A DNA stretch of 64,000 nucleotides from Terriglobales bacterium (GTDB taxonomy: Bacteria; Acidobacteriota; Terriglobia; Terriglobales; Acidobacteriaceae), in NCBI GenBank assembly GCA_963803205.1, contig CAWDLG010000006.1:116977-180976 (forward strand), written 5' to 3'. Below are positions 3,227 through 61,267 of the stretch, in pieces. Below the pieces are notes generated by a model. It was not told the DNA's origin and did not search any database. It was given only the letters and a program-made list of their open reading frames with translations. How positions within the stretch are numbered: the stretch's first letter is position 1; each line of letters starts with the position of its first letter. The translations under genes and the position numbers were made by a program.

Positions 3227-3235
3227 AGTTGCCGG

Positions 3236-6200
3236 CTAGCGAAGCTCTTCGCTCGGCTGAAGCGCAGTGGCACGGCGCTTTCTCGAAATCCGCAAGCGCA
3301 GGCGATCCAGATAAAGATAGATCACAGGAGTGGTGAAAAGGGTCAGCGCCTGGCTGACGATCAATCCACCTACGATCGTGATGCCGAGCGGGCGCCGCAG
3401 CTCCGAGCCCGTGCCTGTGCCCAGGGCGAGGGGCAGGCCGCCGAGGAGCGCTGCCATCGTCGTCATCATTATGGGACGGAAGCGGAGAATGCAGGCTTCG
3501 TAGATCGAGTCTCTTGAATTCTTTCCTTCGGTGCGCTCGGCGTCCAGAGCGAAGTCGATCATCATGATCGCGTTCTTCTTCACGATGCCGATGAGAAGAA
3601 TAATGCCGATCAATCCGATCACGTTGAGCTCGTTGTGAGTCAGCAGGAGCGCAAGGATTGCGCCTACGCCCGCCGAAGGCAGCGTCGACAGGATCGTGAT
3701 GGGGTGGATGTAGCTTTCGTACAGAACTCCGAGAACGATGTAAACCGTGACCAGCGCGGCCAGAATGAGCAGCGGCTCACTTTGCAACGAACTCTGGAAT
3801 GCAGCCGCTGTACCCTGGAAGCTCGCGTTGATGGTGGATGGGAAGCCGATCGAGCGCTCAGCCTGTTCAATCATCTCGGTGGCCTCGCCCAGGGATACGC
3901 CGGGAGCAAGATTGAAAGACAGGGTGACTGACGGATATTGCCCCTGATGGCTGACCGCCAGCGGTGTGTTGGTGCTGGCGAAATGGGCGAAGGCAGCCAG
4001 CGGAACCGCAGTCCCTGTGGAGGACCGAACATAGATGTTCTGGAGCGCTTCGGCGCTGCGCGAGAATTCGGGCGCGACTTCCATTATCACGTGGTACTGG
4101 TTCAGCTGGCGATACATGATGGAAACCTGGCGCTGGCCAAAGGCGTCGTAAAGCGCGTTGTCGATATCGGCCGCGGCAAGACCCAGGCGCGCGGCAGTAT
4201 CGCGGTCGACTGCGACGGTGGCTTGCAGGCCTTTATCCTGCTGGTCGGTGTTGACGTCGCGCAGTTGTGGGAGAGAACGCAGCTTCTGCAAGAGGCGCGG
4301 CGACCAGTGATTCAGGTCGTCCAGATTTTCCCCTTGCAGGGTGTATTGGAACTGCGCCTGACTCTGGCGTCCGCCGATGGTGAGATCCTGCGCGGCCTGC
4401 ATATAGAGCGTGGCGCCCGGAACCACGGCGAGCTTGCGTCGCAGGCGCGCGATCACCTGGTCCGCCGAGATCTTCCGCTCGTCCAGCGGCTTGAGGGTGA
4501 TGAACATCCTTCCGGAGTTGGAAGAGGTATTGCCGCCGGCAAAACCCACGATGGTTTGAACCGCCGGATCCTGCATGACCAGGTTCACGAACTGGGTCAT
4601 CTTCTGCTTCATAGCATCGAAGGAAATGTCCTGGGCTGCCTGCACGGATCCGGCCACACGCCCGGTGTCCTGCTGGGGAAAGAACCCCTTGGGGACGATT
4701 ATGTAGAGATAGATGCTCAAAGCGGCGGTGGCCAGCGTGACCACCAGCATGAGGGGCTGATAACGCAGCACCCATTCCAGGCTGTAGCGGTATATGCTGA
4801 GAACCCGGTTGAAAACCCCTTCGCTGAAGTGATAAATGCGACCGTGCTTTTCTTCGTCGAGTGGACGAAGAAACTTGGCGCACATCGCAGGCGTGGTGGT
4901 GAGGGAAACCAGCAGAGAGACGCCGATGGCGATGCTAAGAGTGACGGCAAACTCGCGGAACAGGCGCCCGACGATCCCTCCCATGAGCAGAATCGGGATG
5001 AACACGGCAACGAGCGACGTGCTCATGGAGAGAACGGTAAACCCGATTTCACGCGCGCCGCGAAACGCAGAGGGAACCGGCGCCATGCCCTTTTCCAGGT
5101 AGCGAGTGATGTTTTCCAGCACGACGATGGCGTCATCGACCACAAAACCTGTCGAGATGGCCAGTGCCATCAGCGACAGGTTGTCCAGGCTGTAGCCCAG
5201 CAGATACATGACGCCGAAAGTTCCAATCAGCGACAGCGGGACGGCCACGCTGGGGATCAAAGTAGCGCGAAAGGTTCGCAGGAAGGCGAACACCACCAGA
5301 ATCACCAGGATCACAGAGATGATCAGGGTGATTTCGATGTCGTGCACCGACGCACGCACTGTCGTGGTGCGGTCCATAACCACTTTCAGGTCGATCGCCG
5401 GAGAAATAGAGGATTTCAGCAGGGGCAATTCCGCCCTGACGCGGTCCACGGTGCCGATAATGTTCGCGCCGGGTTGCCGGAAGACGATGACAAGCACCGC
5501 CGGTTTCCCGTTTGCGAGACCGACCACGCGGATGTCTTCTACGGAGTCCTGCACGTCTGCAACGTCCGCCAGGCGGACAGTCGCGCCATCATGAGAAGCG
5601 ACGATCAGGTTGCGATACTGGTCGGCGCGAAAGATCTGATCGTTGGCGGCAATCGTCCAGGCATTTTCAGGTCCAGCCACCTCGCCCTTCGGCCGATTCG
5701 CATTGGCTGCGCCAAGCGCTGTGCGAACAGTATCCAGTCCGAGTCCCAGCTTGTTCAGAAGAGTGGGATTGAGTTCGGCACGCACGGCCGGCCTCGCGCC
5801 GCCGCCTACGAACACCTGTCCCACACCTTCCACCTGCGACAACTTCTGCGCCAGGATGGAATCGGCGGCGTCGTACATCTTGGGCAGAGTCACCAGGTCG
5901 GAGGTTAGAGCGAGAATCATGATCGGCGCGTCCGCCGGGTTGACTTTGCGGTAGGTCGGATTGCCCGGCAGGTTTGCGGGTAGCTGGCTGCGCGCTGCGT
6001 TGATGGCAGCCTGCACGTCTCGTCCGGCCGCGTCGATGTTGCGGTTGAGATCGAACTGCAACGCAATGCTGGTGGAACCAAGCTGGCTGCTCGAGGTCAT
6101 CTGGTTGATGCCCGCGATCCGCCCGAACTGCCGCTCCAGGGGAGTGGCCACGGCAGACGCCATAGTTTCCGGACTGGCTCCCGGCAATCCGGCAAAAACC

Positions 6201-6337: not shown

Positions 6338-6340
6338 GGA

Positions 6341-10767: not shown

Positions 10768-10936
10768 TGGACGTCCCCAAAGTGTAGTGGGTTGCGGATT
10801 ATTTGTCTCTTTACAATACTTTACACTGCTTCAGGACGAAGCGAACGGTGGCCTTTGCCTGTTTCCTTCGGCACCATAACACGCAGGGTCAAGGCAACAA
10901 AAGCACTGCCCAAAGCGGGTAGGAAAGCGCACTTCG

Positions 10937-12160: not shown

Positions 12161-12182
12161 GCCTGGTTGCGGAGGAATTCTG

Positions 12183-12785
12183 ATGGAACGAATCCCGATT
12201 CCCGGCGCCGAGATTTACTACGAAGCTCACTTCCTCGATGCGGAAGAGGCGACTCGCTGGCTCGAGATTTTATTGAAGAAGTGCGAATGGAGCCGCCGCC
12301 AGGGGCCGTTCGGGCATGCTGTGCCGCGGGACGAGGCGTACTACGGCGATCCCGAGACGCGCTACACCTACTCCCGCCGGGAATACAAGCCCCTCGCCTG
12401 GGTTCCGGAACTGCTTTCCTTGAAGCAACTCGTGGAGAGTGCGACTCCGGATACGGCTTATCTCACATCGGGCCTGATGCGAATTCCCTATAATGCAGCG
12501 CTCTGCAACCTCTACCGCGGTGGAAATGACAGCGTCGGACTGCATGCCGATGCCGAACCGGAAATGGGCCCGGTGATTGCGTCGGTCAGCCTCGGTGCGG
12601 AGCGTATTTTCCGGCTCAAGCGCATCGGCGGAAGCGTTGCGTTCAGTGAAAGACTGCCATCCGGCAGCCTGCTGATTATGGCGGGAGAGACGCAGCAACG
12701 CTTCCGACACGAGGTGCCGAAAGAGCCAGCAATCACAGAGCCGCGCATCAACCTCACTTTCCGGCGGATCTCGCGCGATAACTGA
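12183..12785 (+). CDS. alkB: AlkB-family Fe(II)/2-oxoglutarate-dependent nucleic-acid demethylase
   Basis: The ATG at 12183 lies in frame within ORF 12138-12785. Motifs: LYRGGNDSVGLHADAEPE (HxD), RFRHEV (distal His), RINLTFRRI (2OG-binding Arg). Confidence 0.85.
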   Translation: MERIPIPGAEIYYEAHFLDAEEATRWLEILLKKCEWSRRQGPFGHAVPRDEAYYGDPETRYTYSRREYKPLAWVPELLSLKQLVESATPDTAYLTSGLMRIPYNAALCNLYRGGNDSVGLHADAEPEMGPVIASVSLGAERIFRLKRIGGSVAFSERLPSGSLLIMAGETQQRFRHEVPKEPAITEPRINLTFRRISRDN

Positions 12786-12800
12786 CGAAGTTTGTCGACT

Positions 12801-12858
12801 TTCAATAGGCAAATTGTTTGATTTTTTCTTGACACGATCTGATCGCGATTACTACAGT
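12801..12858 (+). promoter_or_regulatory. Putative operator box plus sigma70-type promoter upstream of the GH78 gene
   Basis: TTCAATAGGCAAAT at 12801-12814; TTGACA at 12829-12834; an 18-nt spacer; (C)TACAGT at 12853-12858. The same modules recur at 22444-22532 and 31176-31229. Confidence 0.6.
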
Positions 12859-12909
12859 TCTGCGGTTCGTATTCACATATGACTCCCACGCTCGCCCGAG
12901 GTAAAAACA

Positions 12910-15900
12910 TTGGCTCGTTCCTCTTTCGTCTCCCGACTCCTGCTGGCCGTTCTCTTCCTCATCGCAGCGAATGCGTTTGCCGCTCCAGTTCATTTGCGAG
13001 TGGAGTATCTGGAGAATCCCCTCGGAATTGACGCCGCGAAGCCTCGCTTCTCGTGGCAGAGCGATAACACAGAGCGGAACTGGCGGCAGACGGCCTATCA
13101 GCTGTTTGTGGCCAGCAGCCCGGAGCGCCTCGGCAACCCCGATGTGTGGGACAGTGGCAAGCAGAGTTCAGCGGAGTCAGTCGGCATTGTGTATGGCGGC
13201 CCGAGCCTCGAATCCCGCAGGCGTTATTACTGGTCGGTGCGGGTCTGGGATGCCGATGGAAAAACGTTCGACTCTTCCGAAACGGCCTGGTGGGAAATGG
13301 GATTGTTGGAGAAGGCCGACTGGAAGGGCAAGTGGATCGGCTGGAAAAATCCGGAGAGTGAGGGGGATGAGTCTGGCATCAAGTGGCTGTGGCTGAGTGG
13401 ACAGAATCCTCTGAACGCCACGCCAAAGACCACGGTGGTTTTTCGCACCTCTGCCGACATCAGGCAGAAGCCTCGAGACGCTGCCTTGTTTATCATCGCG
13501 CGCGGTGACTATCAGGTCTCGGTGAACGGCCGGCAGGTCGACACGAAATCGGGATGGAAGTCGTTTGACCGCCACGACATCACTGATCAACTCGTGATTG
13601 GGGCGAATGTTCTCGAGATTTCAGTAAAGGTACCAGAGCCTCCGCAGTATGGTCCCGGGGCGGGCGCGAAAGCCATGACGGCCGGACTCGCGGGGCTGCT
13701 CAAGATTACCGACGCGGACGGGCGGATTACCCGCATTCCCACGAATGATCGCTGGCAGGCTCGCCTTGAGAACGAGCAAAAATGGGGAAAGGCCGGCGTT
13801 TTTTTCTCGTTGAACGACCGCCGCATGGGTGCGCTGCCAGTTCTCCCCCAGCCCGCTGCGCTGCTGCGACACGATTTCGCGGTTTCGCGCAAAGTGCAGT
13901 CCGCGCGTCTCTACAGCACAGCACTTGGCAGCTACCGGGTATTTATCAATGGGCAGAGAGTGGGAAGCGACGTCCTCACTCCGGATTTCACCGATTATCG
14001 CAAACGCCTCTTGTATCAGACGTACGACGTGACCCAATTGCTGATGGACGGAAAGAATGCCATTGCAGCCATGGTTGGCGACGGATGGTATGGCAGTCCG
14101 CTGACGTGGGAAGGAATGCGCTTCTTTCCTGCGCCCGATCGCCTCCTGGTGCAGCTTGAAATCAACTACAGCGATGGCACGCACGATGTAGTCGTCAGCG
14201 ATGGATCGTGGAAGGCTACCAGGTCACCGATTCTTCACTCGGAAATTTATGCCGGTGAACTCTACGACGCGCGACTCGCCGATCCCGCCTGGGACAAGCC
14301 GGAAACGAACGACTCCGGCTGGGCCTCGGCCGCCGTTGCCGAAGCGCCTTCGATCCTGGTCAGCAGCCAGCCCACGGCACCGGTGCACATTTCCCAATCG
14401 CTGCAACCCAGGAAAGTTACGCCTCTGGCAAACGGAGTCTACGTTTACGACATGGGGCAGAACATGGTCGGATGGGTATCTCTGAAGGTGAGCGGTAGTG
14501 CTGGAACGCGAGTTCGCCTTCGCTTCGCGGAGAGATTGAATCCAGATGGCAGCATTTATACGGAGAATCTGCGCAATGCCGATGCGACCGACCGATATGT
14601 GCTCCGTGGCGGCGGAGAGGAAACGTACGAACCGTACTTCACATTTCACGGTTTCCGCTACGTCGAACTTACCGGCTATCCCGGCGAGCCGGGTCTGGAT
14701 GCCATAACCGGCAGAGTCGCCACCAGCCTGACCGGTGGGCCGACGGCAACCCTGGATACCGCCAGTTCGATGGTCAACGACATGTATTCGATTGGCCTCT
14801 GGGGACAACGGGGCAATTTTCTGAGCATTCCGACCGACTGCCCACAGCGTGACGAACGCCTTGGCTGGATGGGGGACGCAGGAGTCTTCTGGCGGACCGG
14901 CGCCTACAACTTCGATATCGCGGCATTCTCCCAAAAATTCATGGATGACGTCTCCGACGCCCAGGGACCGCAAGGGGCGTTCACGAATGTTTCCCCGAAC
15001 GTGCTGCCCTTCGGCGGCGACTCTACGTCAGGAGCCAACGCCTGGAGTGAAGGTATGGTGGGTGCTCCGGGCTGGGGCGACGCCGGCGTCATCGTTCCCT
15101 ATACGACGTGGCTGCAATATGGCGATCGGGAAATCGTCCGCAAGAACTGGGATGCCATGCAGCGATGGATGGAATTCATTCAGGCGGCAAATCCCGATTT
15201 TCTTCGCAAGAAAGGAGTGGGACCCAACTTTGCCGACTGGCTTGCGCCCGACCCGAATACCGACAAGGATATGCTGGCCACGGCCTACTGGGCGCTGATC
15301 GCCAACATGATGCAGGAGATGGCACATGCCATCGGCGAAGAAGATGAAGCCGAGCGTTATTCCGATCTCATCGAGAAAATTCGCACTGCTTTTCAGAAGG
15401 CGTATATCAAAAGCGACGGAGTAGTCGGCACCGGAACGCAGACGTCTTACGTGGTTGCGCTTTACACGAAAATGGCAGCGCCGGCGCTCGAGCCGGCCTT
15501 AGTGAACAATCTGGTGAAAGATATCGAGAAGAGGAACTGGCACCTGTCTACGGGATTTCTAGGCACGCCTTTTCTGCTGTTCACGCTGGCGAATCACGGC
15601 CACGCAGACGTGGCTTACCGCTTGCTTTTGAACGACACGTATCCCTCGTGGGGATACATGCTGGCCAAGGGAGCGACTACCTGGTGGGAGCGCTGGAACG
15701 GCGATAGCGGCGATCCCGCCATGAATTCCTACAACCACTACGCATTCGGGTCGGTGATTGCGTGGGTCTACCGCTACGTGATCGGCATCGACACTTCTCT
15801 CGAGGGGCCGGGCTTCCGCCAGATCGTAATCCATCCGCGGCTCGATTCTCGCATGCCGCGAGCAGGAGGCGAATATGAATCGGTCTACGGCAGGATCGCA

Positions 15901-16098
15901 ACCGATTGGTCCGGAAGCCCAGGCGGTCCGTTTTCTCTGAAAGTTACGATCCCCGCGAACACGACAGCGAAGGTGTTTCTGCCGGCGGGTGAGAACGCGA
16001 AGGCGATGGAAAATGGCTCTCCCATTGATGCGCAGCGGGAGGGCGATTCGTTAGTCGTTCAGATAGGATCCGGCACTTACGATTTCAGCGTTCGATGA
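12910..16098 (+). CDS. secreted alpha-L-rhamnosidase, GH78
   Basis: TTG start. Signal peptide MARSSFVSRLLLAVLFLIAANAFA. GH78 N-terminal signature LRVEYLENPLGIDAAKPRFSWQ and the catalytic (alpha/alpha)6 block IPTDCPQRDERLGWMGDA...WWERW. Confidence 0.9.
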   Translation: MARSSFVSRLLLAVLFLIAANAFAAPVHLRVEYLENPLGIDAAKPRFSWQSDNTERNWRQTAYQLFVASSPERLGNPDVWDSGKQSSAESVGIVYGGPSLESRRRYYWSVRVWDADGKTFDSSETAWWEMGLLEKADWKGKWIGWKNPESEGDESGIKWLWLSGQNPLNATPKTTVVFRTSADIRQKPRDAALFIIARGDYQVSVNGRQVDTKSGWKSFDRHDITDQLVIGANVLEISVKVPEPPQYGPGAGAKAMTAGLAGLLKITDADGRITRIPTNDRWQARLENEQKWGKAGVFFSLNDRRMGALPVLPQPAALLRHDFAVSRKVQSARLYSTALGSYRVFINGQRVGSDVLTPDFTDYRKRLLYQTYDVTQLLMDGKNAIAAMVGDGWYGSPLTWEGMRFFPAPDRLLVQLEINYSDGTHDVVVSDGSWKATRSPILHSEIYAGELYDARLADPAWDKPETNDSGWASAAVAEAPSILVSSQPTAPVHISQSLQPRKVTPLANGVYVYDMGQNMVGWVSLKVSGSAGTRVRLRFAERLNPDGSIYTENLRNADATDRYVLRGGGEETYEPYFTFHGFRYVELTGYPGEPGLDAITGRVATSLTGGPTATLDTASSMVNDMYSIGLWGQRGNFLSIPTDCPQRDERLGWMGDAGVFWRTGAYNFDIAAFSQKFMDDVSDAQGPQGAFTNVSPNVLPFGGDSTSGANAWSEGMVGAPGWGDAGVIVPYTTWLQYGDREIVRKNWDAMQRWMEFIQAANPDFLRKKGVGPNFADWLAPDPNTDKDMLATAYWALIANMMQEMAHAIGEEDEAERYSDLIEKIRTAFQKAYIKSDGVVGTGTQTSYVVALYTKMAAPALEPALVNNLVKDIEKRNWHLSTGFLGTPFLLFTLANHGHADVAYRLLLNDTYPSWGYMLAKGATTWWERWNGDSGDPAMNSYNHYAFGSVIAWVYRYVIGIDTSLEGPGFRQIVIHPRLDSRMPRAGGEYESVYGRIATDWSGSPGGPFSLKVTIPANTTAKVFLPAGENAKAMENGSPIDAQREGDSLVVQIGSGTYDFSVR

Positions 16099-16111
16099 CG
16101 CAGCGGCCGGG

Positions 16112-17302
16112 CTAGGCGTAGGTTGTCACCACGACCGAATTGCGCTGCTTCCGTTCGGCGGTGATGCGCTCAAGATAGCCGCTCTCGCGCAACGCTTTCA
16201 TCGGATCTTCCGGGAGTCCGTGGCTGCGGCGCCAGTCTTTGAGCACCGGTCGGACGTCGGTCCAGAACGCGCCGCGTAAACACTCCTCTGCGTCAACCAG
16301 CGAACAACTCTTCTGGAGCGACGCCAGTCGCGCGTGGTCCACGATCGCGGCCTTCGCGTAAAGCTCCTGCGCGGTGCACACGGTCTGGACCATGGCCTCC
16401 ATCTTGCCCTTGAGATTGTGGCTTTGGTCAACCATGTAAGCAATGTCGGCGCGCCTGCCAATTTCCCATTCATAGACATGGATCTCGTGGAAGATGCGGA
16501 AGATCTGGTAAGGATCAATCGAGCCCAGCGTGAGATCGTCATCCGCATAGCGGCGGTCGTTAAAGTGGAACCCGCCGATCATTCCGTGATGCAGAAGCCA
16601 GGCCACGATTTGCTCGATATTTTGTGCCTGGTAGTGGTGCCCGGTGTCGACGAGCACGAAGGCCTGGGGCCCGGCCTCTCTTGCAAGAAGAAAAGCCATC
16701 CCCCAGTCCGCGATGTCGGTGTGGTAGAAGGCCGGCTCAAATGGCTTGTATTCAACCAGCAGCCTCTGTTTCGGCTCGAGGCGGGAGTGCACCTCCTTCA
16801 GCGCCTGTTCAAACCATGCGATGCGCTGGCGCATGCTCTGCGTGCCGGGATAGTTCGATCCGTCGGCAAACCAGGGCGAGATGTCCCGGCAGCTCAATTC
16901 ATTTGCAATCGCCACACAGTCGAGGATGTGGTCGAGCGCGCGCTTGCGGATGGCGGGGTCCGGATTTCCCAGTGAGCCGTATTTGTAGTCCTGATCCTGA
17001 AAGATGTTCGGGTTGATCGAGCCTGCCTGAACCCCGTACTTCTGGGCAAGGCCCTGGATTTGGCCGACGTCCTTTGATCCGTTCGGCACATCCCACTGAA
17101 CGTGCAGCGCGATGGTGGGACAGGCACCGGTCAACGCATGCACCTGGCCGGCATCGCTGAATTTGTCCTCAAGGGTGACCGCGGCCGCGGCCTGAATAAA
17201 CTTCCCAAAGCGCGTGCCAGTGTTGGCAAAACCCCAGGAGGGGAGTTCGATATTGAAATTGTCCAGCGCGCGATGTATGAGTCCTTCCGGCTTGTCAGTC
17301 AT
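16112..17302 (-). CDS. rhaI: L-rhamnose isomerase, RhaI (xylose-isomerase-like TIM barrel, P. stutzeri/rhizobial subtype)
   Basis: The internal ATG at 17302 gives MTDKPEGLIH... The motif LPSWGFANTGTRFGKF and VDTGHH...FHFNDRRYADDDL are typical of this isomerase family. It is the last gene of the rhaEW-rhaB-rhaI operon. Confidence 0.8.
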   Translation of the reverse strand: MTDKPEGLIHRALDNFNIELPSWGFANTGTRFGKFIQAAAAVTLEDKFSDAGQVHALTGACPTIALHVQWDVPNGSKDVGQIQGLAQKYGVQAGSINPNIFQDQDYKYGSLGNPDPAIRKRALDHILDCVAIANELSCRDISPWFADGSNYPGTQSMRQRIAWFEQALKEVHSRLEPKQRLLVEYKPFEPAFYHTDIADWGMAFLLAREAGPQAFVLVDTGHHYQAQNIEQIVAWLLHHGMIGGFHFNDRRYADDDLTLGSIDPYQIFRIFHEIHVYEWEIGRRADIAYMVDQSHNLKGKMEAMVQTVCTAQELYAKAAIVDHARLASLQKSCSLVDAEECLRGAFWTDVRPVLKDWRRSHGLPEDPMKALRESGYLERITAERKQRNSVVVTTYA

Positions 17303-17325
17303 GATGCCTTCCCATTCTTCAAACT

Positions 17326-18831
17326 TTATTGCGTGATCGCTGATTGTACTTCGCTCACGGTCTCGATGGCCTGACCGGCGAGGCGCCCGGCCCATTCGGC
17401 AACCCGCGAGGCCGAAACCCCCGCTCCACCTGCATCGCCGCTCTCCAAAGCGGCCAACTGAATGGCAAAATTTCCAACCGTGGTGCTTTCCGTCGATCCC
17501 TTCAGCACTTCCAGCCCGGTAGCCTCAGCCGTCAACCGGTTCAACAAGGCATTCCGGCTGCCGCCACCCACAACATAAAGACGCTTCAAAGACTTATTCG
17601 TAATCTCCGCGATGCTGCGCAAGACCGCCGCGTACCTCGCTGCGAGGCTGTGAAAGATGAGATTTGCCATTTGCGGCGCCGCATCGGCCGATACGGGCAC
17701 CGGCCGCTTGCCATTTCTTGCAAGCTGGGCACTGATACGCGCCGGCATACCGGAGGGCAGCACCAGATCGGAATCATCGACGTCCAGCAGATCCTGCGGC
17801 GGCGGGAGGGTCACACATGCCGCGAGCAGATCTTCCACCTTCCACGTATGGCCACCTGCCCGCCAGTCTTCCATGCATTGCTGTAGCAACCACATGCCGT
17901 TAACGTTCTTCAGCAGATAAATTTTTCCTCCAACTCCTCCTTCATTGCTGAAGTTCATCCGACGGGCATCGTCGCCGACGTGTGGCGAGTCGACTACACA
18001 TCCAACAAGGGACCATGTACCCGAACTTATGAACGCCCAATCGTCTCCATCGGCGGGAATGCCAGCGATGGCTGACGCCGTGTCGTGGCAGGCCGGCGCG
18101 ATCAGTCGCGTGGAGCGGAAGGCCGGCAGCGTAGCCAGCGGTCCCGTCATACGGCCGATGTCCGTACCAGGCTTGACCACTGGAGGCGCTGCGGTGACGT
18201 CTAATCCGGTAGCGGTGAAGATCTCGCCGCACCACGCTTGATCGTGAACGCCCAGCAACTGTGTGTTGCTGGCGTTGGTGAACTCCGCAACCCGCTTGCC
18301 GCCGAGATGGTAAAGCACGTATTCAGGCAGATTAAGCCAGGGCAGGGTCTGCTGCCGGGATTCGTCCGCGCACAACTGGTAGAGAGTGTTAAGAGGCAGA
18401 ATCTGGATGCCCGTGAGAGCGTAGAGTCGATCCGCGGGGATGAAGCGGTCGAAGTTCTTCAAGACTTTTGTCGTGCGCTCATCGCGATAGCAGAACGGGT
18501 TGGCGACTGGCTCGCCGTCCGGACCCAGGCGAACGTAGTCGACCGCCCAGCCGTCGACGCCAACCGACGCAATCTCGCCGGATGTGCAGGCCGCGCAGCG
18601 GCGTAGTCCTTCCTCCACGCCTTCGCAGATGCGATGAATATCCCAGCGCAGGCCGTTTTCGCCCTGCCTCGGGGCATTGGGGAAGCGGTACACCAGCTGC
18701 ATCTCCGGCCTGGAGTCGATCCATTTCAGCAATGAGACCCGGCAACTCTCGGCTCCCAGATCGACGGCAGCAAGGGTTTTTCCGCCGGGGCTGGATCGCG
18801 CGCTGCTTCGATCGTGAGGCATCAAATTCAT
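17326..18831 (-). CDS. rhaB: rhamnulokinase (FGGY family)
   Basis: The ATG at 18831 overlaps the stop of the upstream gene (ATGA). FGGY N-terminal motif AAVDLGAESCRVSLL and C-terminal YVVGGGSRNALLNRLTA. Confidence 0.85.
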   Translation of the reverse strand: MNLMPHDRSSARSSPGGKTLAAVDLGAESCRVSLLKWIDSRPEMQLVYRFPNAPRQGENGLRWDIHRICEGVEEGLRRCAACTSGEIASVGVDGWAVDYVRLGPDGEPVANPFCYRDERTTKVLKNFDRFIPADRLYALTGIQILPLNTLYQLCADESRQQTLPWLNLPEYVLYHLGGKRVAEFTNASNTQLLGVHDQAWCGEIFTATGLDVTAAPPVVKPGTDIGRMTGPLATLPAFRSTRLIAPACHDTASAIAGIPADGDDWAFISSGTWSLVGCVVDSPHVGDDARRMNFSNEGGVGGKIYLLKNVNGMWLLQQCMEDWRAGGHTWKVEDLLAACVTLPPPQDLLDVDDSDLVLPSGMPARISAQLARNGKRPVPVSADAAPQMANLIFHSLAARYAAVLRSIAEITNKSLKRLYVVGGGSRNALLNRLTAEATGLEVLKGSTESTTVGNFAIQLAALESGDAGGAGVSASRVAEWAGRLAGQAIETVSEVQSAITQ

Positions 18832-21035
18832 CGCAGGAAAGCTTCTGTCAGACCTCCATCCACGGGGACGATGTGCCCGGTGGTACACGGCGACTTCGGT
18901 CCGGCCAGGAAAAGGATGGCTTCCGCACAATCCCTGGGATCGATGGGACGGTGCGTCAGAGTTCTTTTGGCATAAAACTCCGCCAGCACGCTGCGCAGTT
19001 GATCGTCAGTCGCCGATTCGTCGAACGGAATTTCATACTTCTTGAGAGAAGCGATGACCCGATCGCGAGGGAACATCGTCGATCCCTTGATCACTGTGGC
19101 TGGGCTGATGCCGTTTACGCGAATCTTCGGAGAGAGCGCGATCGCCAGCTCGCGAACCAGATGGCTCAGGGCCGCCTTGCTTACATCGTAGGCCTCGCTG
19201 CCGCGCTTGGCGACGACTGCGTTGGCGGAACTCGTCAGGACGATCGATGCGTTGAGACTCTGGTCGCGCAGGATCTTGGCGGCCTCATCGGCCAGCAGGT
19301 AGTTGGCGGTCACGTTGAGGTCGAGGGTGATGCCCCATTGCTCGTCCGAGATACGGCCGTCGGAAGAGGAAGGGAACAAGGCGGCGGTGTTAATCAGGAT
19401 GTCGATTCCGCCGAAGGACGCAATCAGCTCCCGCAAGGATTGGCGAATGGCTTCTCGTTTGCGGATATCGGCGGAAACTGAGATTGCGCCTTCCTTGCCC
19501 GCGGCGGCCTTGGCCTCCTCCGCTACTTTCTTTGCGGCTTCGCTGTCGCGATCGGCGACCACGACGTGCGCGCCGCGTTCGGCGGCCAGCAAGGCGGCCT
19601 CGCGCCCGATTCCGCTTCCACCGCCCACGATCATGACCACGTGCCGGCTGAGTTCCTTCTCCGGAGGCTGACGGCGAATCTTGGCCTCTTCGAGCGCCCA
19701 GTATTCGATTCGAAACGCTTCCGAGAGCGGCAAGGCGACATAGTTGCAGTGGACCTGGAAAGCGTCAGTGGGAGCGGCATCTCCGGCCTGCGGCAGCGGC
19801 ACCGGAGGCCGACCCGAGTCCAGCGAAGTGGCGCCCTCCATCACGTGAATTGCATTGACATAAAATTCGCCGGTCAAACGCGATTCTGTCTTGCTTTTCC
19901 CGAAGCTGAACATGCCGATGCCGGGAATGAGAACCACTGTGGGATTTGAATCGCGCATGGCCGGTGAGTCCGGCTGGGCGAACGAGCGGTAATAGTCGGC
20001 ATATTCCTTGCGATAGGTTTCGAGCGCCGCGTCAACCTGCTTTTTCAAATCGTCCAGGTTGCCTCCCGGCGTCCAGGCGACAAACAGCGGCCGCACTTTA
20101 GTCCGGATAAAGTGGTCGGGACAACTGGTTCCAAGATGCGCGAGTTGTTTTGCGTCTTTAGAGTTGACGAAGCGCAAAACCTCAGGAAGGTCGGAGAAGC
20201 TGCCAATCATGCGACGCTGGCCGGAGACGCGTCCGCGCAGGAAGGGGAAGATATCAATTGCAAGTTCTCGCCGATTGGGCAGCTCCGCATGCAGCGGACC
20301 GCCAAATAGAGCCGAGCCCTTCTCCTCGACCTCACCTCCTACGAGCTGGCCCAACTGATCGATGATCGCGAGCGTGTTTTCGTAGCACTCCTGCTGAGTG
20401 TCGCCCCACGTAAACAGCCCGTGGCCGCCGAGCACAATTCCGTCACAGCCGGGAGCCTCCTGCACGGCGCGGCGCAACATCATCGCCAACTCGAAACCCG
20501 GCCGCTGCCAAGGCACCCAGATCAAGTGATGGCCGAAACCACGATTGAACTCCTCCATCTTCTGCTTGCCGTTCGCTGAAGCTGCGAGAGCGATGCCCCA
20601 GTCGGGATGGAGGTGGTCGATGTGGCGGAAAGGAAGAAATCCATGAAGCGGAGTATCGATGGAGGTGGCGACGCTGCTTCTGCCGAAAGTACACAGCCAG
20701 TACTGCTCGACCATTTCATCTTCGTGCTCGGCGCCGCGATAGTTGTTCTCCAGCGCGCGCAGCTTCTGAAGATACAGCGTGGCCAGGCCCGATAACTTGA
20801 TGCTGCCCAGGTCTCCGCCACTGCCTTTGATCCAGAGTACTTCCTCCTGCTTTCCGGTCAGCGGATCGGTTTGCAGAATTTTCGAACTGGTGTTGCCGCC
20901 GCCGAAGTTCGTAATGCGGAGATCCGAGCCAAGAAGATTGGAGCGGTAACGGAGCAGTTCCGGTTCGTCGAGAGTGCGCGCGATGCGTTCGTCCCAGCGG
21001 TCTTCGAGATAGCGCAAGCCGGTTTTGACAGCCAT
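18828..21035 (-). CDS. rhaEW: bifunctional L-rhamnulose-1-phosphate aldolase (class II aldolase/adducin domain) / short-chain dehydrogenase (lactaldehyde dehydrogenase-type), RhaEW-like
   Basis: The ATG at 21035 gives MAVKTGLRYLEDRWDE... The N-terminal half has an aldolase_II pattern (NFGGGNTSSK, HLHPDW). The C-terminal half is an SDR (VMIVGGGSGIGREAAL; YDVSKAAL). This architecture is the known one in rhaI-type rhamnose clusters. Confidence 0.85.
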   Translation of the reverse strand: MAVKTGLRYLEDRWDERIARTLDEPELLRYRSNLLGSDLRITNFGGGNTSSKILQTDPLTGKQEEVLWIKGSGGDLGSIKLSGLATLYLQKLRALENNYRGAEHEDEMVEQYWLCTFGRSSVATSIDTPLHGFLPFRHIDHLHPDWGIALAASANGKQKMEEFNRGFGHHLIWVPWQRPGFELAMMLRRAVQEAPGCDGIVLGGHGLFTWGDTQQECYENTLAIIDQLGQLVGGEVEEKGSALFGGPLHAELPNRRELAIDIFPFLRGRVSGQRRMIGSFSDLPEVLRFVNSKDAKQLAHLGTSCPDHFIRTKVRPLFVAWTPGGNLDDLKKQVDAALETYRKEYADYYRSFAQPDSPAMRDSNPTVVLIPGIGMFSFGKSKTESRLTGEFYVNAIHVMEGATSLDSGRPPVPLPQAGDAAPTDAFQVHCNYVALPLSEAFRIEYWALEEAKIRRQPPEKELSRHVVMIVGGGSGIGREAALLAAERGAHVVVADRDSEAAKKVAEEAKAAAGKEGAISVSADIRKREAIRQSLRELIASFGGIDILINTAALFPSSSDGRISDEQWGITLDLNVTANYLLADEAAKILRDQSLNASIVLTSSANAVVAKRGSEAYDVSKAALSHLVRELAIALSPKIRVNGISPATVIKGSTMFPRDRVIASLKKYEIPFDESATDDQLRSVLAEFYAKRTLTHRPIDPRDCAEAILFLAGPKSPCTTGHIVPVDGGLTEAFLR

Positions 21036-21127
21036 AGCGGAACCACCTTGGAGTTTGGGGGAGAGGAGCACAAACCGGCGGCGTGGCCGGGCGGCCTCCC
21101 AAGGCACCCCACATCATAACCCAGCGA

Positions 21128-21155
21128 TGCAATAGGGCAACAATTTCTATTCGAA
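21128..21155 (-). promoter_or_regulatory. Putative palindromic operator upstream of rhaEW-rhaB-rhaI
   Basis: The plus strand reads TGCAATAGGGCAACAATTTCTATTCGAA. This is an inverted pair CAATAG-N11-CTATT. The minus-strand reading TTCGAATAGAAATTG resembles the TTCAATAGGCAAATTG box at 12801. A possible TATGAT -10 lies on the minus strand at 21113-21118. Confidence 0.5.
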
Positions 21156-21219
21156 AATATGGCTTCGCCGCCGAACGGCTGCAAGCCGCACTTGTCACCT
21201 TGCCTAGATGGGGGAAGGG

Positions 21220-22341
21220 CTAGGCGCGATTCAATTCCCGAGCGGACGAAGCTGTCATCAGCTCATGCTCTACGTAGTTATAAGGAGCGACCCGCTGTCC
21301 GCTGAGCAGGGCCAGCCCGAGGTGAATCAGCCGAGGGCCGTAGGTATGAGCCTGATGCGACACTGAGCCGATAAGTGGACTGTTTCCCTGGCGCATTTCT
21401 TCGAGTGCTTCCGCGATGCAGTCCTGGCCGACAATGGCCACCTGCTTTTCGCGTTTCAGTTCGCGTACAGCCTGCACCGCGCCGAGCGCGCTGGTATCGG
21501 TGGCGGCGGCAATCAGAATGCCCTTATCCCGCGGGTGCCGCCGGAGAAAATCGTGGACCAGCTGATAGCTCCGGTCGCGCATCCCCCGGCCGTCCATTCG
21601 CAGAAAAGCGTCCTCGGGTAAAGATCGCAGCTTCGAGCGGATTGCCTCGAAGGCGCCGGTGACCCGGCTGCGGACGAGCGGCCCGGCCTCATCAATGTCG
21701 AGTCCGAGCGCCCACTTCGCCTTGCCGCCCCAGGCCTTCTTTGCATACTGGGCCAGGCATTCCCCGGCTTCGAAACCCACGCGGTAGTTATTGACCCCGA
21801 AGAAGGTCGCATGGGGGTGGGGGATGTCCACTGCAATGAAAGGGATACTGGCCCCGTCGATCTTATCCGCCAGGACCGGCGCCACATGCTGATCGATCTG
21901 AAATTCGATCAGCAGATCCACGCGATTGCGCACGAATTCATCGGCATTGCGCAGCGCAGTGGGGCCGTCGTATCGGTTGTCGAGCACGATCAGATCCACG
22001 CCTGCGGCGGAAGCGGCGCTCTTGAGGCTATCGGTCACGGCTTCGGAGAAGGGCATCTCCGCGGACTGGCTGCCAAATCCGAATCTTGCTTTTTTGGGGC
22101 GCGCCACCAGGCGGTACAGGCCGTCCTGCGACTGCGCCAGGTATCCGCGGTGCAGGAAGGTTTTCAGAATTCGATAAACGGTCGTTTTCGAGATGTTGGT
22201 CTTCTGGTAGATCGCTTCCAGCGTGAGGGCGCCGCGCTCATTTTGCAGAAGCTCCAGGATGTCGAGAGCCTTGGAAAGAACCGGAATCAGATACAGGCGC
22301 TTCGGAGCGGACCGGGTCAATGGACGTAGCCTCTTTGGCAA
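21220..22341 (-). CDS. transcriptional regulator: N-terminal winged HTH (IclR/DeoR-like) fused to a type-I periplasmic-binding-protein (LacI/RbsB-like) sugar-binding domain
   Basis: TTG start, which is uncertain. wHTH: LSKALDILELLQNERGALTLEAIYQKTNISKTTVYRILKTFLHRGYL. The remainder has the alternating beta-alpha PBP1 pattern (DLIVLDNRYD..., IPFIAVDIP..., ILIAAATDTSALGAVQAV..., AIVGQD). It lies between the rha catabolic operon and the TonB receptor. Confidence 0.7.
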   Translation of the reverse strand: MPKRLRPLTRSAPKRLYLIPVLSKALDILELLQNERGALTLEAIYQKTNISKTTVYRILKTFLHRGYLAQSQDGLYRLVARPKKARFGFGSQSAEMPFSEAVTDSLKSAASAAGVDLIVLDNRYDGPTALRNADEFVRNRVDLLIEFQIDQHVAPVLADKIDGASIPFIAVDIPHPHATFFGVNNYRVGFEAGECLAQYAKKAWGGKAKWALGLDIDEAGPLVRSRVTGAFEAIRSKLRSLPEDAFLRMDGRGMRDRSYQLVHDFLRRHPRDKGILIAAATDTSALGAVQAVRELKREKQVAIVGQDCIAEALEEMRQGNSPLIGSVSHQAHTYGPRLIHLGLALLSGQRVAPYNYVEHELMTASSARELNRA

Positions 22342-58087: not shown

Positions 58088-58128
58088 GGGAAGCACAGCG
58101 GGCGACCTGTGCTTCCCTCGATTTTTTT
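58088..58128 (+). terminator. Rho-independent terminator after ppdK
   Basis: The 11-bp stem GGGAAGCACAG / CTGTGCTTCCC has an 8-nt loop, followed by TCGATTTTTTT. The T-tract overlaps the stop codon of the convergent gene. Confidence 0.75.
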
Positions 58129-58717
58129 ATTGAATTCTTTGCAGTCTTGAGATCAGTTTCTGCGCCAGGCTCTCGCCCGACTCTGACCATAGCAAGCGCG
58201 CATTCGCTCCTGACGCTTGCTCGAGCTTGACACTGAATTCCACTAACTTGTGGACATTCGCCTTCACGCGCTCCTCGGCCTCAAGTGTTAGCTGCACCTC
58301 TTCGTGCAAAAACGGCGTGTCCAATCCCAGATCGACCTGAACGTGGCCTTCCTGTTCGTACGCGCCTTCGTCGAACTGCTCTCCCCGGGCGATAAACCTG
58401 ACGCCCGAGGGCAGCAGCTTCCATTCCCGGGTTTCCGTGAGAATCCAGAGATCCCACGCCGCTTCGAAGCAATACCCGTAGTCGTCGTGCAGGGCGTCGG
58501 AGGCGATTAAAACGGCTTCCTCCGGCCTCACTCCGGGCCGGAAACGCTGTTCGAGCGTCGTTGGCTCATTCCATGACACCGGATGCAGCGCCAGGTAGCT
58601 GATGCCCGGCTGCTCGGCGGAAAACGGAAACTGGCGCATCACCGAGAGCGCATGCGGCAGGACGTCCTCCACATCGAACTCGGGAAACCACAAGCTGAGA
58701 TAGAGAGGGTCGGCCAT
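58127..58717 (-). CDS. hypothetical acidic cytoplasmic protein (196 aa); I recognise no family
   Basis: ATG-initiated ORF with GC-rich third codon positions like its neighbours. The only competing ORF is the spurious 5' extension of the mqnE-like gene. It has no TM segment or signal peptide. Confidence 0.55.
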   Translation of the reverse strand: MADPLYLSLWFPEFDVEDVLPHALSVMRQFPFSAEQPGISYLALHPVSWNEPTTLEQRFRPGVRPEEAVLIASDALHDDYGYCFEAAWDLWILTETREWKLLPSGVRFIARGEQFDEGAYEQEGHVQVDLGLDTPFLHEEVQLTLEAEERVKANVHKLVEFSVKLEQASGANARLLWSESGESLAQKLISRLQRIQ

Positions 58718-58825
58718 GTCAGGATTTACCGCTTCGAACTCCCCTTTTTATCACGGATGGGCCTCCGTTCCTGTCCTCGCGCTGGCCAATACCTCTATTG
58801 CGCGGCTGCGGTATCATCAGTAGAG

Positions 58826-59956
58826 ATGGCTGCTGCACATCCATTCCAGACCGACGATCCGCGGTTAGGACCTATCCATGACCGCGTGATGGCCGGCCAA
58901 CGGCTCGGCTACGAGGACGCACTGGCCGTGTACCGTACGGGCGACATCCTTGCGGTTGGCTGGCTGGCAAATGCAGTGCGCGAGCGGATACACGGCAACC
59001 GCACGTATTTCAACGTCAACCGTCACATCAATCCGACCAACGTCTGCGTGGCGGCCTGCCGCCTTTGCGCCTTTGGGCGCAAGAAGGACAGCCCCGGCGC
59101 CTACACGATGGCTCTCGACGAGGCCTTTCAGACAGCCGCCACCGGATACAGCGAAGCGGTCACGGAATTCCACATCGTCGGCGGTCTGCATCCCGATCTG
59201 CCGTTCCAATATTTTCTCGATCTGATCTCCGGCCTGAAGGAGCGCTTCCCACAGGTTCATCTCAAAGCTTTCACGATGGTCGAGGTGGCTTACCTGGCGA
59301 AGCGAGCCAAGCTCTCCATCCTTGAAACTTTGCAGCAGATGAAAGACGCCGGCGTCGATTCCTTGCCCGGCGGCGGCGCCGAGATTTTCGCCGACCGCGT
59401 GCGGCACATCATTTGCGATCACAAGATTGACGGCGCCCAATGGCTTGAGACGGCCCGGACTGCCCACAGGATTGGGCTCAAGTCGAACGCCACCATGCTT
59501 TATGGTCACGTCGAAAATGACGAAGACCGCGTCGACCACCTTCTCAAGCTGCGTGACCTCCAGGATGAAACCGGCGGCTTCCAGACCTACATTCCGCTGG
59601 CGTTTCATCCGGACAACACGCCCCTGCAGCACCTGCCCAAAACGACGGGCATGCTTGACATCAAGCAGATCGCCGTTGGAAGGCTGGTGCTCGACAACTT
59701 CCCCCACATTAAGTCCTACTGGCAGATGATGACGCCGAAGATCGCCCAGATCTCGCTGCGCTTCGGGGCCGACGACATCGACGGCACGGTGGTCGAGGAG
59801 AAGATCTATCACGACGCCGGGGCCACGACCCCGCAAGGCATGCGCCGAGAGGAACTCGTGCGCCTGATCACGGAAGCCGGCCGCGAACCGGTCGAGCGCG
59901 ATACTCTTTACCGGCCAGTCACCCGCACAGAGACCTCTGTCACCGTAGCCGTCTAG
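58826..59956 (+). CDS. mqnE: futalosine-pathway radical SAM enzyme, MqnE/MqnC family (aminofutalosine synthase more likely)
   Basis: ATG at 58826 within ORF 58583-59956. Radical SAM cluster NRHINPTNVCVAACRLCAF (Cx3Cx2C). The overall length (376 aa) and the blocks FHIVGGLHPD and MLYGHVE are typical of the family. Discriminating MqnE from MqnC by eye is uncertain. Confidence 0.75.
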   Translation: MAAAHPFQTDDPRLGPIHDRVMAGQRLGYEDALAVYRTGDILAVGWLANAVRERIHGNRTYFNVNRHINPTNVCVAACRLCAFGRKKDSPGAYTMALDEAFQTAATGYSEAVTEFHIVGGLHPDLPFQYFLDLISGLKERFPQVHLKAFTMVEVAYLAKRAKLSILETLQQMKDAGVDSLPGGGAEIFADRVRHIICDHKIDGAQWLETARTAHRIGLKSNATMLYGHVENDEDRVDHLLKLRDLQDETGGFQTYIPLAFHPDNTPLQHLPKTTGMLDIKQIAVGRLVLDNFPHIKSYWQMMTPKIAQISLRFGADDIDGTVVEEKIYHDAGATTPQGMRREELVRLITEAGREPVERDTLYRPVTRTETSVTVAV

Positions 59957-60097
59957 CCCTGGCTCCCGGCCCGATTTTTCCTGTTTTTGCGGGATGAATT
60001 GACCTCCGGATTTCGTTTTTCTCCATACCACGGGGTGTAGAATCGATGTGCAGGACGAAAGCTTCAGGGGATCCGCTCCCCTTTTCCGAGGCCTCGA

Positions 60098-61144
60098 ATG
60101 AACGTCCATATCAGTTATCGGGTTCAAAAAACTCCAGACATCGAAAAAGAAATCACTCATATCGTAGGCAAGCTGCAAAAAAGGCTGCAATTCTTCCGTC
60201 CGGAACTGGTGCACCTGAAAGGGCTGGTGGAAAAGAACTCTCCGCGCAAGGGAATCACTGTCGCTTTGAACCTGCGACTGCCTTCCGGCCAGATGGCGGC
60301 CCAGGAATCGGCGCCGGTTGCCACGGCGGCAATCAAGGGCGCATTCAGTGAGCTGCTGCAACAGGTCAGCAAGCACAAGGCCCTTCTCAGGAACTCCCAC
60401 AAGTGGGCCCGCCACCGCCGCGAGCCGGGCGCGCCCCCGGAAACGCACATGCCGTTTGAAAAAACACTGGCGGCCGTGCAGACGCCGGCGGTCTCTGCGG
60501 AAGATATCCGTTCCTATGTCAACGCCAGTCTGGGACGGCTGGAGCGCTTCGTGGAGCGGGAGCTCTTCATCCGTGAGGCCAGCGCCGAGATCTCCTCCGA
60601 CGCCGTGAGCAGGGAAGAAGTCATTGACGAGGTCATTGTCCGGGCCCTGGGCGATGGAGAGGAAAAACCGGAGCGGATTAGGCTGGAGCCGTGGCTCTAT
60701 CGCCTGGCCATCGCCTCGATTGACGACCTCGCGGCACGCGGGGAGGATAGCGTCGGCAGTGTTCCTTTGGAGGAATCGGCGCGTAAGCAGAACGTGCGGG
60801 CAAGCGATGAGGCCGGGTTGCAATTTCACCAGCCGGACGAGATGCTCACCGAAGAAAGCATAATTCCGGACCGCCGGGTCTCTACTCCCGAGGACATTGC
60901 CTATTCCGACGAGATGGTCGGACTGGTTCAGTATGCCTTGGCTGGCTCCGGGCGGGTGGATCGCGAGGCCTTCATTCTGCACACGATTGAGGGGTTTTCG
61001 ATCGAAGAAATTGCCGTAATCACAGATCGCAAAGATGACGAGATACGTACGTCGATCACGGCTGCCCGGCAGCACGTTCGCCGCTTTGCCCGCCTGCCCG
61101 AGAGCGTCCGCCAGCGCGGGTTGCAGAAGACGGGTACGACCTGA
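60098..61144 (+). CDS. fusion protein: N-terminal HPF/RaiA (S30AE, ribosome hibernation) domain plus C-terminal ECF-sigma-like region 2 and region 4
   Basis: Residues 1-100 are MNVHISYRVQKTPDIEKEITHIVGKLQKRLQFF...VALNLRLPSGQMAAQESAPVATAAIKGAFSELLQQVSKHKALLR. They are collinear with E. coli HPF (MQLNITG...[40 protein letters not shown]). Residues approx. 190-235, EEVIDEVIVRAL...EPWLYRLAIASIDDLAAR, look like sigma70 region 2. Residues approx. 285-335, REAFILHTIEGFSIEEIAVITDRKDDEIRTSITAARQHVR, look like a region 4 HTH. Confidence 0.7.
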   Translation: MNVHISYRVQKTPDIEKEITHIVGKLQKRLQFFRPELVHLKGLVEKNSPRKGITVALNLRLPSGQMAAQESAPVATAAIKGAFSELLQQVSKHKALLRNSHKWARHRREPGAPPETHMPFEKTLAAVQTPAVSAEDIRSYVNASLGRLERFVERELFIREASAEISSDAVSREEVIDEVIVRALGDGEEKPERIRLEPWLYRLAIASIDDLAARGEDSVGSVPLEESARKQNVRASDEAGLQFHQPDEMLTEESIIPDRRVSTPEDIAYSDEMVGLVQYALAGSGRVDREAFILHTIEGFSIEEIAVITDRKDDEIRTSITAARQHVRRFARLPESVRQRGLQKTGTT

Positions 61145-61218
61145 TTTCTTCGCGATTCATGTAGGAGGGGCGCTGCCTGAAAACTCCCATCTCGCGGGAC
61201 GCGTCCACGAACCATGCA

Positions 61219-61240
61219 GGCACGGGCGTCCTCGCCCGTG
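61219..61240. terminator. GC-rich hairpin between convergent genes; a possible factor-dependent or bidirectional termination element with no U-tract
   Basis: GCACGGGCG-TCCT-CGCCCGTGC is a perfect 9-bp stem. No T-run follows on either strand. Confidence 0.35.
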
Positions 61241-61267
61241 CAAAGGCTAGTTTGAGTTAGGAGGTAA

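Follow-up and report, generated by a model that had tools for sequence, protein, structure and literature searches.

Chimeric isoforms of hibernation-promoting factor (HPF), in which the protein is fused to Csp, SigE or CBS domains, have recently been noted in bacteria (bioRxiv 10.1101/2025.11.04.686544, November 2025). They coexist with canonical HPF, which marks the chimera as an extra, specialised factor, and are encoded at variable loci, often beside Balon, and also on plasmids (bioRxiv 10.1101/2025.11.04.686544). Helena-Bueno et al. identified the aeRF1-like protein Balon as a hibernation factor of the A site and found it bound together with RaiA; its operons contain genes for RaiA, Hsp20, DnaK/J, HdeD and "alternative sigma70 factors" (PMC10901736). 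Burroughs and Aravind described baeRF-1 families as persistent gene neighbours of HPF (PMC6514570). The archaeal CBS-HPF/RaiA fusion HibA (PMC13324472) differs in partner domain, domain order and kingdom from the protein treated here, and a fusion of HPF with a sigma factor module is mentioned neither in the HibA paper, nor in the review on the transmissible stress-tolerance locus (tLST), nor in the main text of the reclassification of extracytoplasmic function (ECF) sigma factors (PMC7826278). Here we describe such an HPF-sigma gene from a Terriglobales bacterium (Acidobacteriota), located in a stretch of 64,000 nucleotides, in the following termed the window (assembly GCA_963803205.1, contig CAWDLG010000006.1, positions 116,977 to 180,976 of the forward strand):

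60098..61144, + strand: HPF-sigma fusion open reading frame, ATG start, 348 residues, complete

We read its product, with a probability of roughly 0.4, as a two-module stress protein that idle ribosomes sequester via the HPF domain, thus setting the pool of free stress sigma factor. This model is favoured because the sigma module is complete, because a linker motif within it is the most constrained part of the protein and because sigma-only relatives occur in the same operons. The architecture itself is not new. An earlier reading, made from the sequence only, had not known it as a described family, a statement that is outdated since SigE-HPF chimeras appear in the preprint cited above and public annotation names both halves. 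The window gene belongs to this recently noted kind of chimera: as in the SigE-HPF proteins, an HPF N-domain without the dimerisation domain is joined to SigE-type domains, and the family has Balon-adjacent variable loci and plasmid copies. The architecture agrees with what the preprint defines as HPF-SigE, and an eRF1-like neighbour is present in 30 of 32 orthologous loci, though not in the window. What has been newly worked out here are the Terriglobia family, its occurrence in split and sigma-only form, and its gene contexts of the dnaK-clpB and tLST-like kinds. The E. coli plasmid example named by the preprint was not recovered, and when E. coli genomes were searched at the DNA level with the copy from the Brucella plasmid, nothing was found. 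A scan of the 64-kb window found no canonical HPF, indeed no second HPF of any kind, and no second sigma factor.

The reading frame is a genuine gene that encodes a covalent fusion of HPF and sigma modules, and the proposal of a single-frame fusion made in the sequence-only reading was borne out. A GAGG Shine-Dalgarno sequence lies 6 nucleotides 5' of the ATG. The protein has 4,498 matches in a database clustered at 90% identity, the best 120 of which are all full length (341-364 residues), while a library clustered at 50% identity yielded 840 clusters with E-values up to 1e-3, among them many full-length members at just 24-30% identity. All 32 loci in our Terriglobia set (L001-L032, 13 kb each, from Terriglobales, Sulfotelmatobacter and Korobacter) carry the gene, 31 of them as one open reading frame of 341-360 residues. 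The protein recurs unchanged in an independent assembly, and four further contigs encode a version of it with 96% identity. Purifying selection acts on the HPF half as well as on the sigma half: the ratio of non-synonymous to synonymous substitution rates (dN/dS) between the window gene and its 96%-identical relative is 0.053, with no stop and no frameshift, and the HPF part shows 0 non-synonymous versus 21 synonymous changes, the sigma part a ratio of 0.064. One distant clade does have separate HPF-like and sigma open reading frames, and one might thus suspect an assembly or frameshift artefact that joined two genes. This candidate was rejected and has virtually no chance of being correct, given the number of homologues, the intact orthologues (L030 being the one frameshifted exception), the independent assembly and the dN/dS of 0.05. 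Orthologous loci, where two separate genes would speak for an artefact, favour a real gene, the two-gene versions being confined to the distant clade.

The N-terminal part of the protein comprises two features:

60098..60403, + strand: HPF/RaiA (S30AE) domain, residues 1-102, order beta-alpha-beta-beta-beta-alpha, net charge +10 (from PF02482, profile alignment and Foldseek)
60404..60496, + strand: basic tail, residues 103-112 (W103, R105, R108), followed by a disordered linker, residues 113-133 (from model confidence and conservation)

The first approximately 100 residues, terminal helix included, are an HPF domain, and alignment by eye had already led to this view. PF02482 (Ribosomal_S30AE) matches residues 8-95 with 30.5 bits against a cut-off of 23.7 and is found in all 60 of the diverse family members on which domain retention was counted; the NCBIfam yfiA equivalog stays below its cut-off (22.1 vs 40.9). 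When the N-terminal 112 residues were used as a profile, positions 1-100 aligned with HPF from E. coli and Listeria (E 1e-9 to 1e-10), with the family motif KHK..LR lining up with KHKDKLK of E. coli HPF, and the full-length family profile retrieves solved HPFs at E-values of about 1e-10. The AlphaFold model of residues 1-106 has a predicted local distance difference test score (pLDDT) of about 85-90 and the fold order given above; in Foldseek, it superimposes on the RaiA/HPF structures 8rd8_D, 6h4n_x, 2rql and 4hei with template modelling (TM) scores of 0.82-0.84 and root-mean-square deviations of 2.2-2.6 Å. The top structural neighbour, PDB 8rd8, is the 70S ribosome with Balon and RaiA (PMC10901736). 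Conserved basic positions of the domain are R8, K25, K28, R50, K94 and R98, of which K25, K28, K94 and R98 are lysine or arginine in at least 80% of the family. In HPF, basic residues on two helices contact 16S rRNA. The basic tail adds +2 to the charge of the domain, giving net +12, and the basic helices, the tail and the superposition on ribosome-bound RaiA/HPF are the features expected for RNA binding.

Short HPF/RaiA and the long HPFs of S. aureus, B. subtilis and Listeria share with the window protein a full-length S30AE alignment, the fold and a basic flexible linker after it. Whereas long HPF continues into a C-terminal dimerisation domain, HPF-sigma carries an ECF-like sigma2-sigma4 module instead; the dimerisation domain was not found, and residues 131-348 give no Pfam match except to sigma domains. 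In the full-length AlphaFold model (mean pLDDT 75.6, predicted TM score (pTM) 0.48), residues 103-130 fall below a pLDDT of 50, and mean conservation is 0.55 in the basic tail and 0.34 in linker residues 113-133. The linker of about 80 residues assumed from the sequence only is too long: the disordered part spans about 30 residues (103-133), and residues 134-161 already form the first long sigma2-like helix.

The C-terminal part, residues 134-331, is overall a compact ECF-type sigma2-linker-sigma4 module with the following parts:

60497..60751, + strand: divergent sigma region-2-like domain, residues 134-218, three helices, net charge -9 (from TIGR02937 alignment, weak AlgU/sigmaE alignment and model)
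60752..60886, + strand: sigma2-sigma4 linker, residues 219-263, predicted disordered (low pLDDT), including the start of the acidic motif
60818-60895, + strand: acidic motif LQFHQPDE-L-EE-IPD----TPED, residues 241-266 (from family conservation)
60887..61090, + strand: sigma region 4 helix-turn-helix domain, residues 264-331 (from PF08281, PF22233, profile and Foldseek)

Region 4 is canonical and region 2 is divergent. PF08281 (Sigma70_r4_2) matches residues 288-326 with 28.8 bits against a cut-off of 25.7, and region 4 is kept in 57 of the 60 diverse family members. Compared by itself, it resembles region 4 of sigmaE on -35 DNA and region 4 of SigR with TM scores of 0.76-0.82 (Foldseek). Region 2 aligns with regions 2.2-2.4 of AlgU and sigmaE in the correct register, with only 8-10 bits, and retains a region 2.2-like helix, EVIDEVIVRAL, with a nearly invariant D177 and the invariant W199 of WLYRLA. 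The full-length family profile finds the solved ECF sigma factors sigmaE, AlgU, SigW and SigH at E-values of about 1e-12 to 1e-13. Full-length modelling yields three helices in residues 134-218, disorder in residues 218-262 and a four-helix C-terminal domain, and residues 131-348 modelled alone reach a pLDDT of 80.6 and a pTM of 0.70. All 50 best PDB neighbours of this C-module model are sigma factors, with ECF sigmas first and EcfG, SigW, CnrH, SigL, sigmaE and SigH among the best. The fold is a two-domain sigma2-sigma4 fold without regions 1.1 and 3, in which region 2 has three helices instead of the usual four. Of the two sigma blocks proposed at first, region 4 was thus confirmed by PF08281 and profile, while region 2 is weak by sequence, with no PF04542 match, and is backed by its fold neighbours.

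The best-conserved segment of the entire protein, with a mean identity of 0.59, is the acidic motif of the sigma2-sigma4 linker (family form LxFxQPDE-L-LED-PD----PE, residues 241-266). A profile search lines it up with the junction of regions 3.2 and 4.1 in WhiG (PDB 6pfj), and such constraint is expected if the linker threads through RNA polymerase.

A module of this type may be asked whether it binds RNA polymerase at all. PhyR, the anti-anti-sigma factor in the general stress response of alphaproteobacteria, consists of a sensory domain fused to a sigma-like module whose region 2 is degenerate too, and HPF-sigma could by analogy be a decoy that captures an anti-sigma factor when HPF senses the state of the ribosome, thereby freeing a separate ECF sigma. 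PF22233 (PhyR_sigma-like) indeed scores 30 bits, above its cut-off of 27, and the closest closed-state structure is EcfG-NepR. The PF22233 match overlaps the generic region 4 match, however, and both profile and fold place the module closer to true ECF sigmas (52 bits vs at most 35 bits for PhyR; no PhyR among the 50 best folds). Unlike PhyR, HPF-sigma has no receiver domain and no nepR or ecfG neighbours. Neither an anti-sigma-like neighbour nor a nepR-like partner is conserved at the HPF-sigma loci, and a separate ECF sigma is hard to find, the window containing no second sigma or HPF and another ECF-like reading frame being nearby in just two of 120 loci (118 lack one). We consider a decoy function very unlikely.

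The family reaches well beyond Terriglobia, and the phyletic survey suggested in the sequence-only reading extends the fusion to other phyla and to proteobacterial plasmids. Distant members stem from Blastocatellia, Nitrospirae, Candidatus Tectimicrobiota and Verrucomicrobiae, and 33 records of plasmid or megaplasmid homologues with 26-31% identity, mostly full length, come from Brucella anthropi, Paracoccus, Shinella, Cupriavidus, Burkholderia, Sphingomonas and Methylorubrum; Pfam finds both domains in two plasmid copies. The annotation of plasmid-borne homologues is sigma-70 family factor, in other records FliA or sigma-28, probably by mis-annotation. Among 88 loci from other clades (80 obtained by metagenome scan, 8 by protein look-up), three forms can be distinguished: fused, which is the great majority, split, and sigma-only. 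In the split form at locus L116, a gene for a 117-residue S30AE protein (4525..4878) is followed by one for a 248-residue sigma protein (4875..5621) with an ATGA overlap; the region 2 and region 4 matches of the latter are significant yet below the Pfam cut-offs. The same pattern, with HPF-like and sigma reading frames in different frames, recurs in L112, L114, L115 and L118-L120, all from one soil clade, and the split point coincides exactly with the disordered linker. The ATGA overlap would make the two products translationally coupled and supports a functional link between the modules, not an artefact. In two further cases (L030:5956-7045 and L110:701-1541) an HPF-sigma orthologue runs through two frames; in contrast to the clean ATGA-coupled splits, a frameshift error or a pseudogene probably accounts for this. 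Sigma-only relatives, about 220-232 residues long and devoid of the HPF domain, are found in L103, L105, L106, L108, L109, L111 and L117; the gene in L117 (8055..8753, 232 residues) has clpB directly before it and a baeRF family 10 gene after it. Fused, split and sigma-only forms occupy the same gene contexts, which indicates that the modules are functionally linked across the family.

These contexts are informative. In 30 of the 32 Terriglobia loci, the next gene 3' of HPF-sigma encodes a protein of approximately 390 residues that matches Pfam baeRF_family10 (E 6e-17; reference position L001:7072-8250, corresponding to window stretch 61145-61267), and it starts 12-65 nucleotides past the HPF-sigma stop in 29 of the 32 and at 332 nucleotides in the frameshifted 30th. 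The neighbour also matches archaeal aRF1 (E 4e-5), with GGQ not present at the aligned site; by sequence it was tied to aRF1 only and not to Balon. As in the pairs of Balon/baeRF-1 and RaiA, an eRF1-like gene thus stands beside an HPF-family gene in stress operons with chaperones and alternative sigmas; unlike in those pairs, a single polypeptide unites the HPF-family protein with the alternative sigma here, and the partner belongs to baeRF family 10. In other clades, the gene recurs directly after dnaK-grpE-dnaJ-merR(hspR-like)-clpB, near dnaK-grpE-hsp20, after rhomboid-NfeD and beside baeRF family 10/12. Flanks of 3 kb or more are available for 51 other-clade loci; of these, 29 have genes for ClpB, DnaK, DnaJ, GrpE, Hsp20 or Lon and 13 a baeRF gene, and chaperone/Lon, baeRF or rhomboid-NfeD genes are present in 37. 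On Brucella anthropi plasmid pOANT01 (L126, record 2884-21804), the copy resides inside a heat-resistance island resembling tLST/LHR, with three Hsp20 genes and genes for FtsH, a ClpK/G-like protein, HdeD, YfdX1/2, TrxC and KefB, and on the Paraburkholderia symbiosis plasmid pSYMBR3459 (L127), it lies between three Hsp20 genes and groES-groEL-dnaK. The HPF-sigma family is strongly linked to ribosome A-site factors and proteostasis genes, and its gene context points to ribosome and proteostasis stress.

Proteases recur nearby as well (rhomboid-NfeD, M50-CBS, Lon, FtsH), and with them another explanation enters, namely that the protein is an ordinary ECF-type sigma factor for heat or proteotoxic stress whose HPF-like domain is non-ribosomal and acts in cis as a regulatory or anti-sigma domain, possibly removed by proteolysis as in a pro-sigma factor. 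Regulatory extensions fused to ECF sigmas are well documented, at the C-terminus in ECF41/42 and at the N-terminus in BldN and SigC, and such sigmas share with HPF-sigma the sigma2-sigma4 core, a possible gating domain and the lack of an adjacent anti-sigma (PMC7826278). The basic N-domain (+12) and the acidic C-module (-17) could clamp onto each other, the split forms look like sigma/anti-sigma gene pairs, and the C-module is modelled in the closed conformation of anti-sigma complexes: its closest folds are the anti-sigma-bound EcfG-NepR, SigW-RsiW and CnrH-CnrY, with TM scores of 0.66-0.69 over about 200 columns. HPF-sigma differs from the extended ECFs, though, in that its N-terminal extension is a ribosome-binding fold, its region 2 fails PF04542 and no autoregulated ECF promoter was found upstream. 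Furthermore, the full S30AE signature, including the basic helix residues of ribosome-bound HPF/RaiA, is kept in all 60 members, the partner gene encodes a factor of the ribosomal A-site type, and AlphaFold does not confidently dock the N-domain onto the sigma module (pTM 0.48). A cis-acting role of the HPF domain therefore appears unlikely.

The model that we favour, with idle ribosomes sequestering a two-module stress protein, would work as follows. The HPF/RaiA-type domain would plug the tRNA/mRNA channel of vacant 30S or 70S ribosomes and would, in most relatives, act beside the eRF1-like, Balon-type A-site factor encoded immediately 3'. Past the flexible linker of about 30 residues, the C-module would bind core RNA polymerase through its region 2.2-like helix, the acidic linker and region 4. 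The two activities would be linked and, most likely, mutually exclusive, such that idle ribosomes would serve as the anti-sigma factor and sigma-dependent transcription of proteostasis and ribosome-rescue genes would report the count of vacant or damaged ribosomes. That the N-domain binds ribosomes, that the C-module binds RNA polymerase and in which direction the two are coupled is what we infer from the features described. In its specific form, in which the ECF-type sigma is inactive while its HPF domain occupies vacant 30S decoding centres and is freed when ribosomes are engaged, damaged or depleted, the idea of the ribosome as anti-sigma factor is rather doubtful. The more general suggestion made from the sequence at the outset, that the fusion may couple translational shut-down with transcription or tether a sigma factor to ribosomes, is made plausible by the gene context.

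A number of observations weigh against this model and have to be set beside the main alternative, a plain stress-specific hibernation factor in which the sigma-like module replaces the dimerisation domain of long HPF and has no role in transcription; the C-module might then bring ribosomes together in pairs, attach to the 30S platform or interact with the Balon-type partner. One of them concerns the upstream region, where a single element stands out:

60034..60043, + strand: -10-like motif GGTGTAGAAT, conserved as GGTGTAnAAT, about 55 nucleotides 5' of the start codon

The motif lies at equal distance 5' of the orthologue in 30 of the 32 Terriglobia loci, occurs once per 13-kb locus and has one exact copy in the window. 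By its sequence, it resembles the -10 element of a housekeeping sigma factor and not an ECF promoter. A regulon search with GGTGTAnAAT found it only before the HPF-sigma gene in the window and in each 13-kb locus, and so neither a regulon nor a target promoter emerged; no ECF-type autoregulated promoter was found upstream of HPF-sigma genes, and a simple scan of the same region detected no -35 element. Within the protein, PF04542 (sigma region 2) does not match and is matched by only 3 of the 60 diverse family members, TIGR02937 aligns with residues 155-329 but reaches 28.5 bits against a cut-off of 42.9, and the family does not conserve the N/D/R residues that are usual in region 2.4. The C-module carries a charge of about -17 (sigma2 -9, linker motif -5, sigma4 -3), and the recognition helix of region 4 is poor in basic residues within the Terriglobia clade; together, these two features make promoter recognition doubtful. 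The pTM of 0.48 means that no fixed arrangement between the modules is predicted. A sigma factor tethered to a 2.5-MDa ribosome could not search promoters, which leaves sequestration as the only physically attractive direction of coupling. In the window, finally, the baeRF family 10 gene is absent, both after the HPF-sigma gene and throughout the 64 kb.

For a hibernation factor speak, besides the degenerate region 2, the acidic C-module and the lack of any ECF-type promoter or anti-sigma factor at these loci, the tight operon with a gene for an eRF1-like ribosome factor and a linker between N-domain and C-module that is comparable in length to the linker of long HPF. This is also how the preprint, a survey that includes no experiment on the chimeras, simply reads these proteins, which coexist with canonical HPF and adjoin Balon genes (bioRxiv 10.1101/2025.11.04.686544). 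On the other hand, a mere spacer or dimeriser needs neither a complete sigma2-linker-sigma4 layout nor, in 57 of 60 members, a canonical helix-turn-helix of region 4, nor a sigma-specific 3.2/4.1-like linker motif as its best-conserved segment. Moreover, the same slot, between clpB and baeRF family 10, is held by sigma-only relatives that have no HPF domain, which indicates that the sigma module has a function of its own. We regard a plain hibernation factor as a serious possibility that nevertheless falls clearly short of being probable.

If both modules are active, HPF-sigma would be the first known case of a protein that binds both the decoding centre of the ribosome and, as a sigma factor, RNA polymerase, and would link translational state and stress transcription within one polypeptide. 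If ribosomes do act as anti-sigma factor, transcription of chaperone and ribosome-rescue genes would read ribosome occupancy directly, a physical form of the old idea of the "ribosome as stress sensor". The family is abundant in soil Acidobacteria and travels on proteobacterial plasmids in heat-resistance islands, so that what it does matters for dormancy in soil and for stress tolerance that can be transmitted. Even as a plain hibernation factor it defines a large, testable subclass of HPF. In practical terms, annotations as "alternative sigma factor" and "RaiA" beside Balon-type genes can denote one and the same gene.

Further candidate features flank the coding region:

60061..60092, + strand: 5' untranslated region element, in which GCUUC (60061-60065) can pair with the Shine-Dalgarno sequence GAGGC (60088-60092), with an inner hairpin at 60066-60082 (from folding and covariance model)
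61220..61241, strand not assigned: GC-rich hairpin GCACGGGCG-TCCT-CGCCCGTGC with a 9-bp stem, between the convergent HPF-sigma and S41 protease genes (read from the sequence)

In the majority of minimum-free-energy folds computed for 21 orthologous untranslated regions, the Shine-Dalgarno sequence is base-paired, with z-scores near zero. After realignment with a covariance model, the outer stem shows no variation and two pairs covary in the inner stem, a weak signal; RNAalifold on a MAFFT alignment of the 5' untranslated regions returned no structure, and Rfam contains no matching family for this leader. The pairing could constitute a thermometer-like element of translational control. The hairpin at 61220..61241 is a likely transcript end; it has no U-tract and gave weak, sub-threshold Rfam matches only, and a terminator scan called a sole, weaker site at 61131-61143. 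In front of split-gene copies, approximately 100-150 nucleotides upstream, we noted a perfect palindrome, TGACGCA-N6-TGCGTCA, in 3 of 120 loci (L110:281, L114:7730, L119:1764), which could be an operator; imperfect versions exist in L059-L062.

NCBIfam holds no specific family that covers the whole HPF-sigma protein. An antisense reading frame of 736 residues (58865..61075, - strand) covers the whole HPF-sigma gene and part of its neighbour; it is unsupported as a gene and is a by-product of high GC content. The neighbours in the window are housekeeping genes, with a MqnC/CofH-like radical SAM gene 5' and a convergent S41 protease gene plus tatA 3', and the synteny of the radical SAM and HPF-sigma genes is maintained in 22 of the 32 Terriglobia loci. 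The contigs of the closest relatives (L121-L125) all stop just past the HPF-sigma gene, which hints at a rearranged or repeated downstream region. The listed start of the radical SAM reading frame (58583-59956, + strand) is too early and overlaps a 196-residue reading frame on the opposite strand; since the corresponding gene in L121 has 376 residues, translation probably starts near 58826. The 196-residue frame itself (58127-58717, - strand) has no Pfam match, lies between the genes for pyruvate phosphate dikinase and the radical SAM protein and is called with the same size and position in L121.

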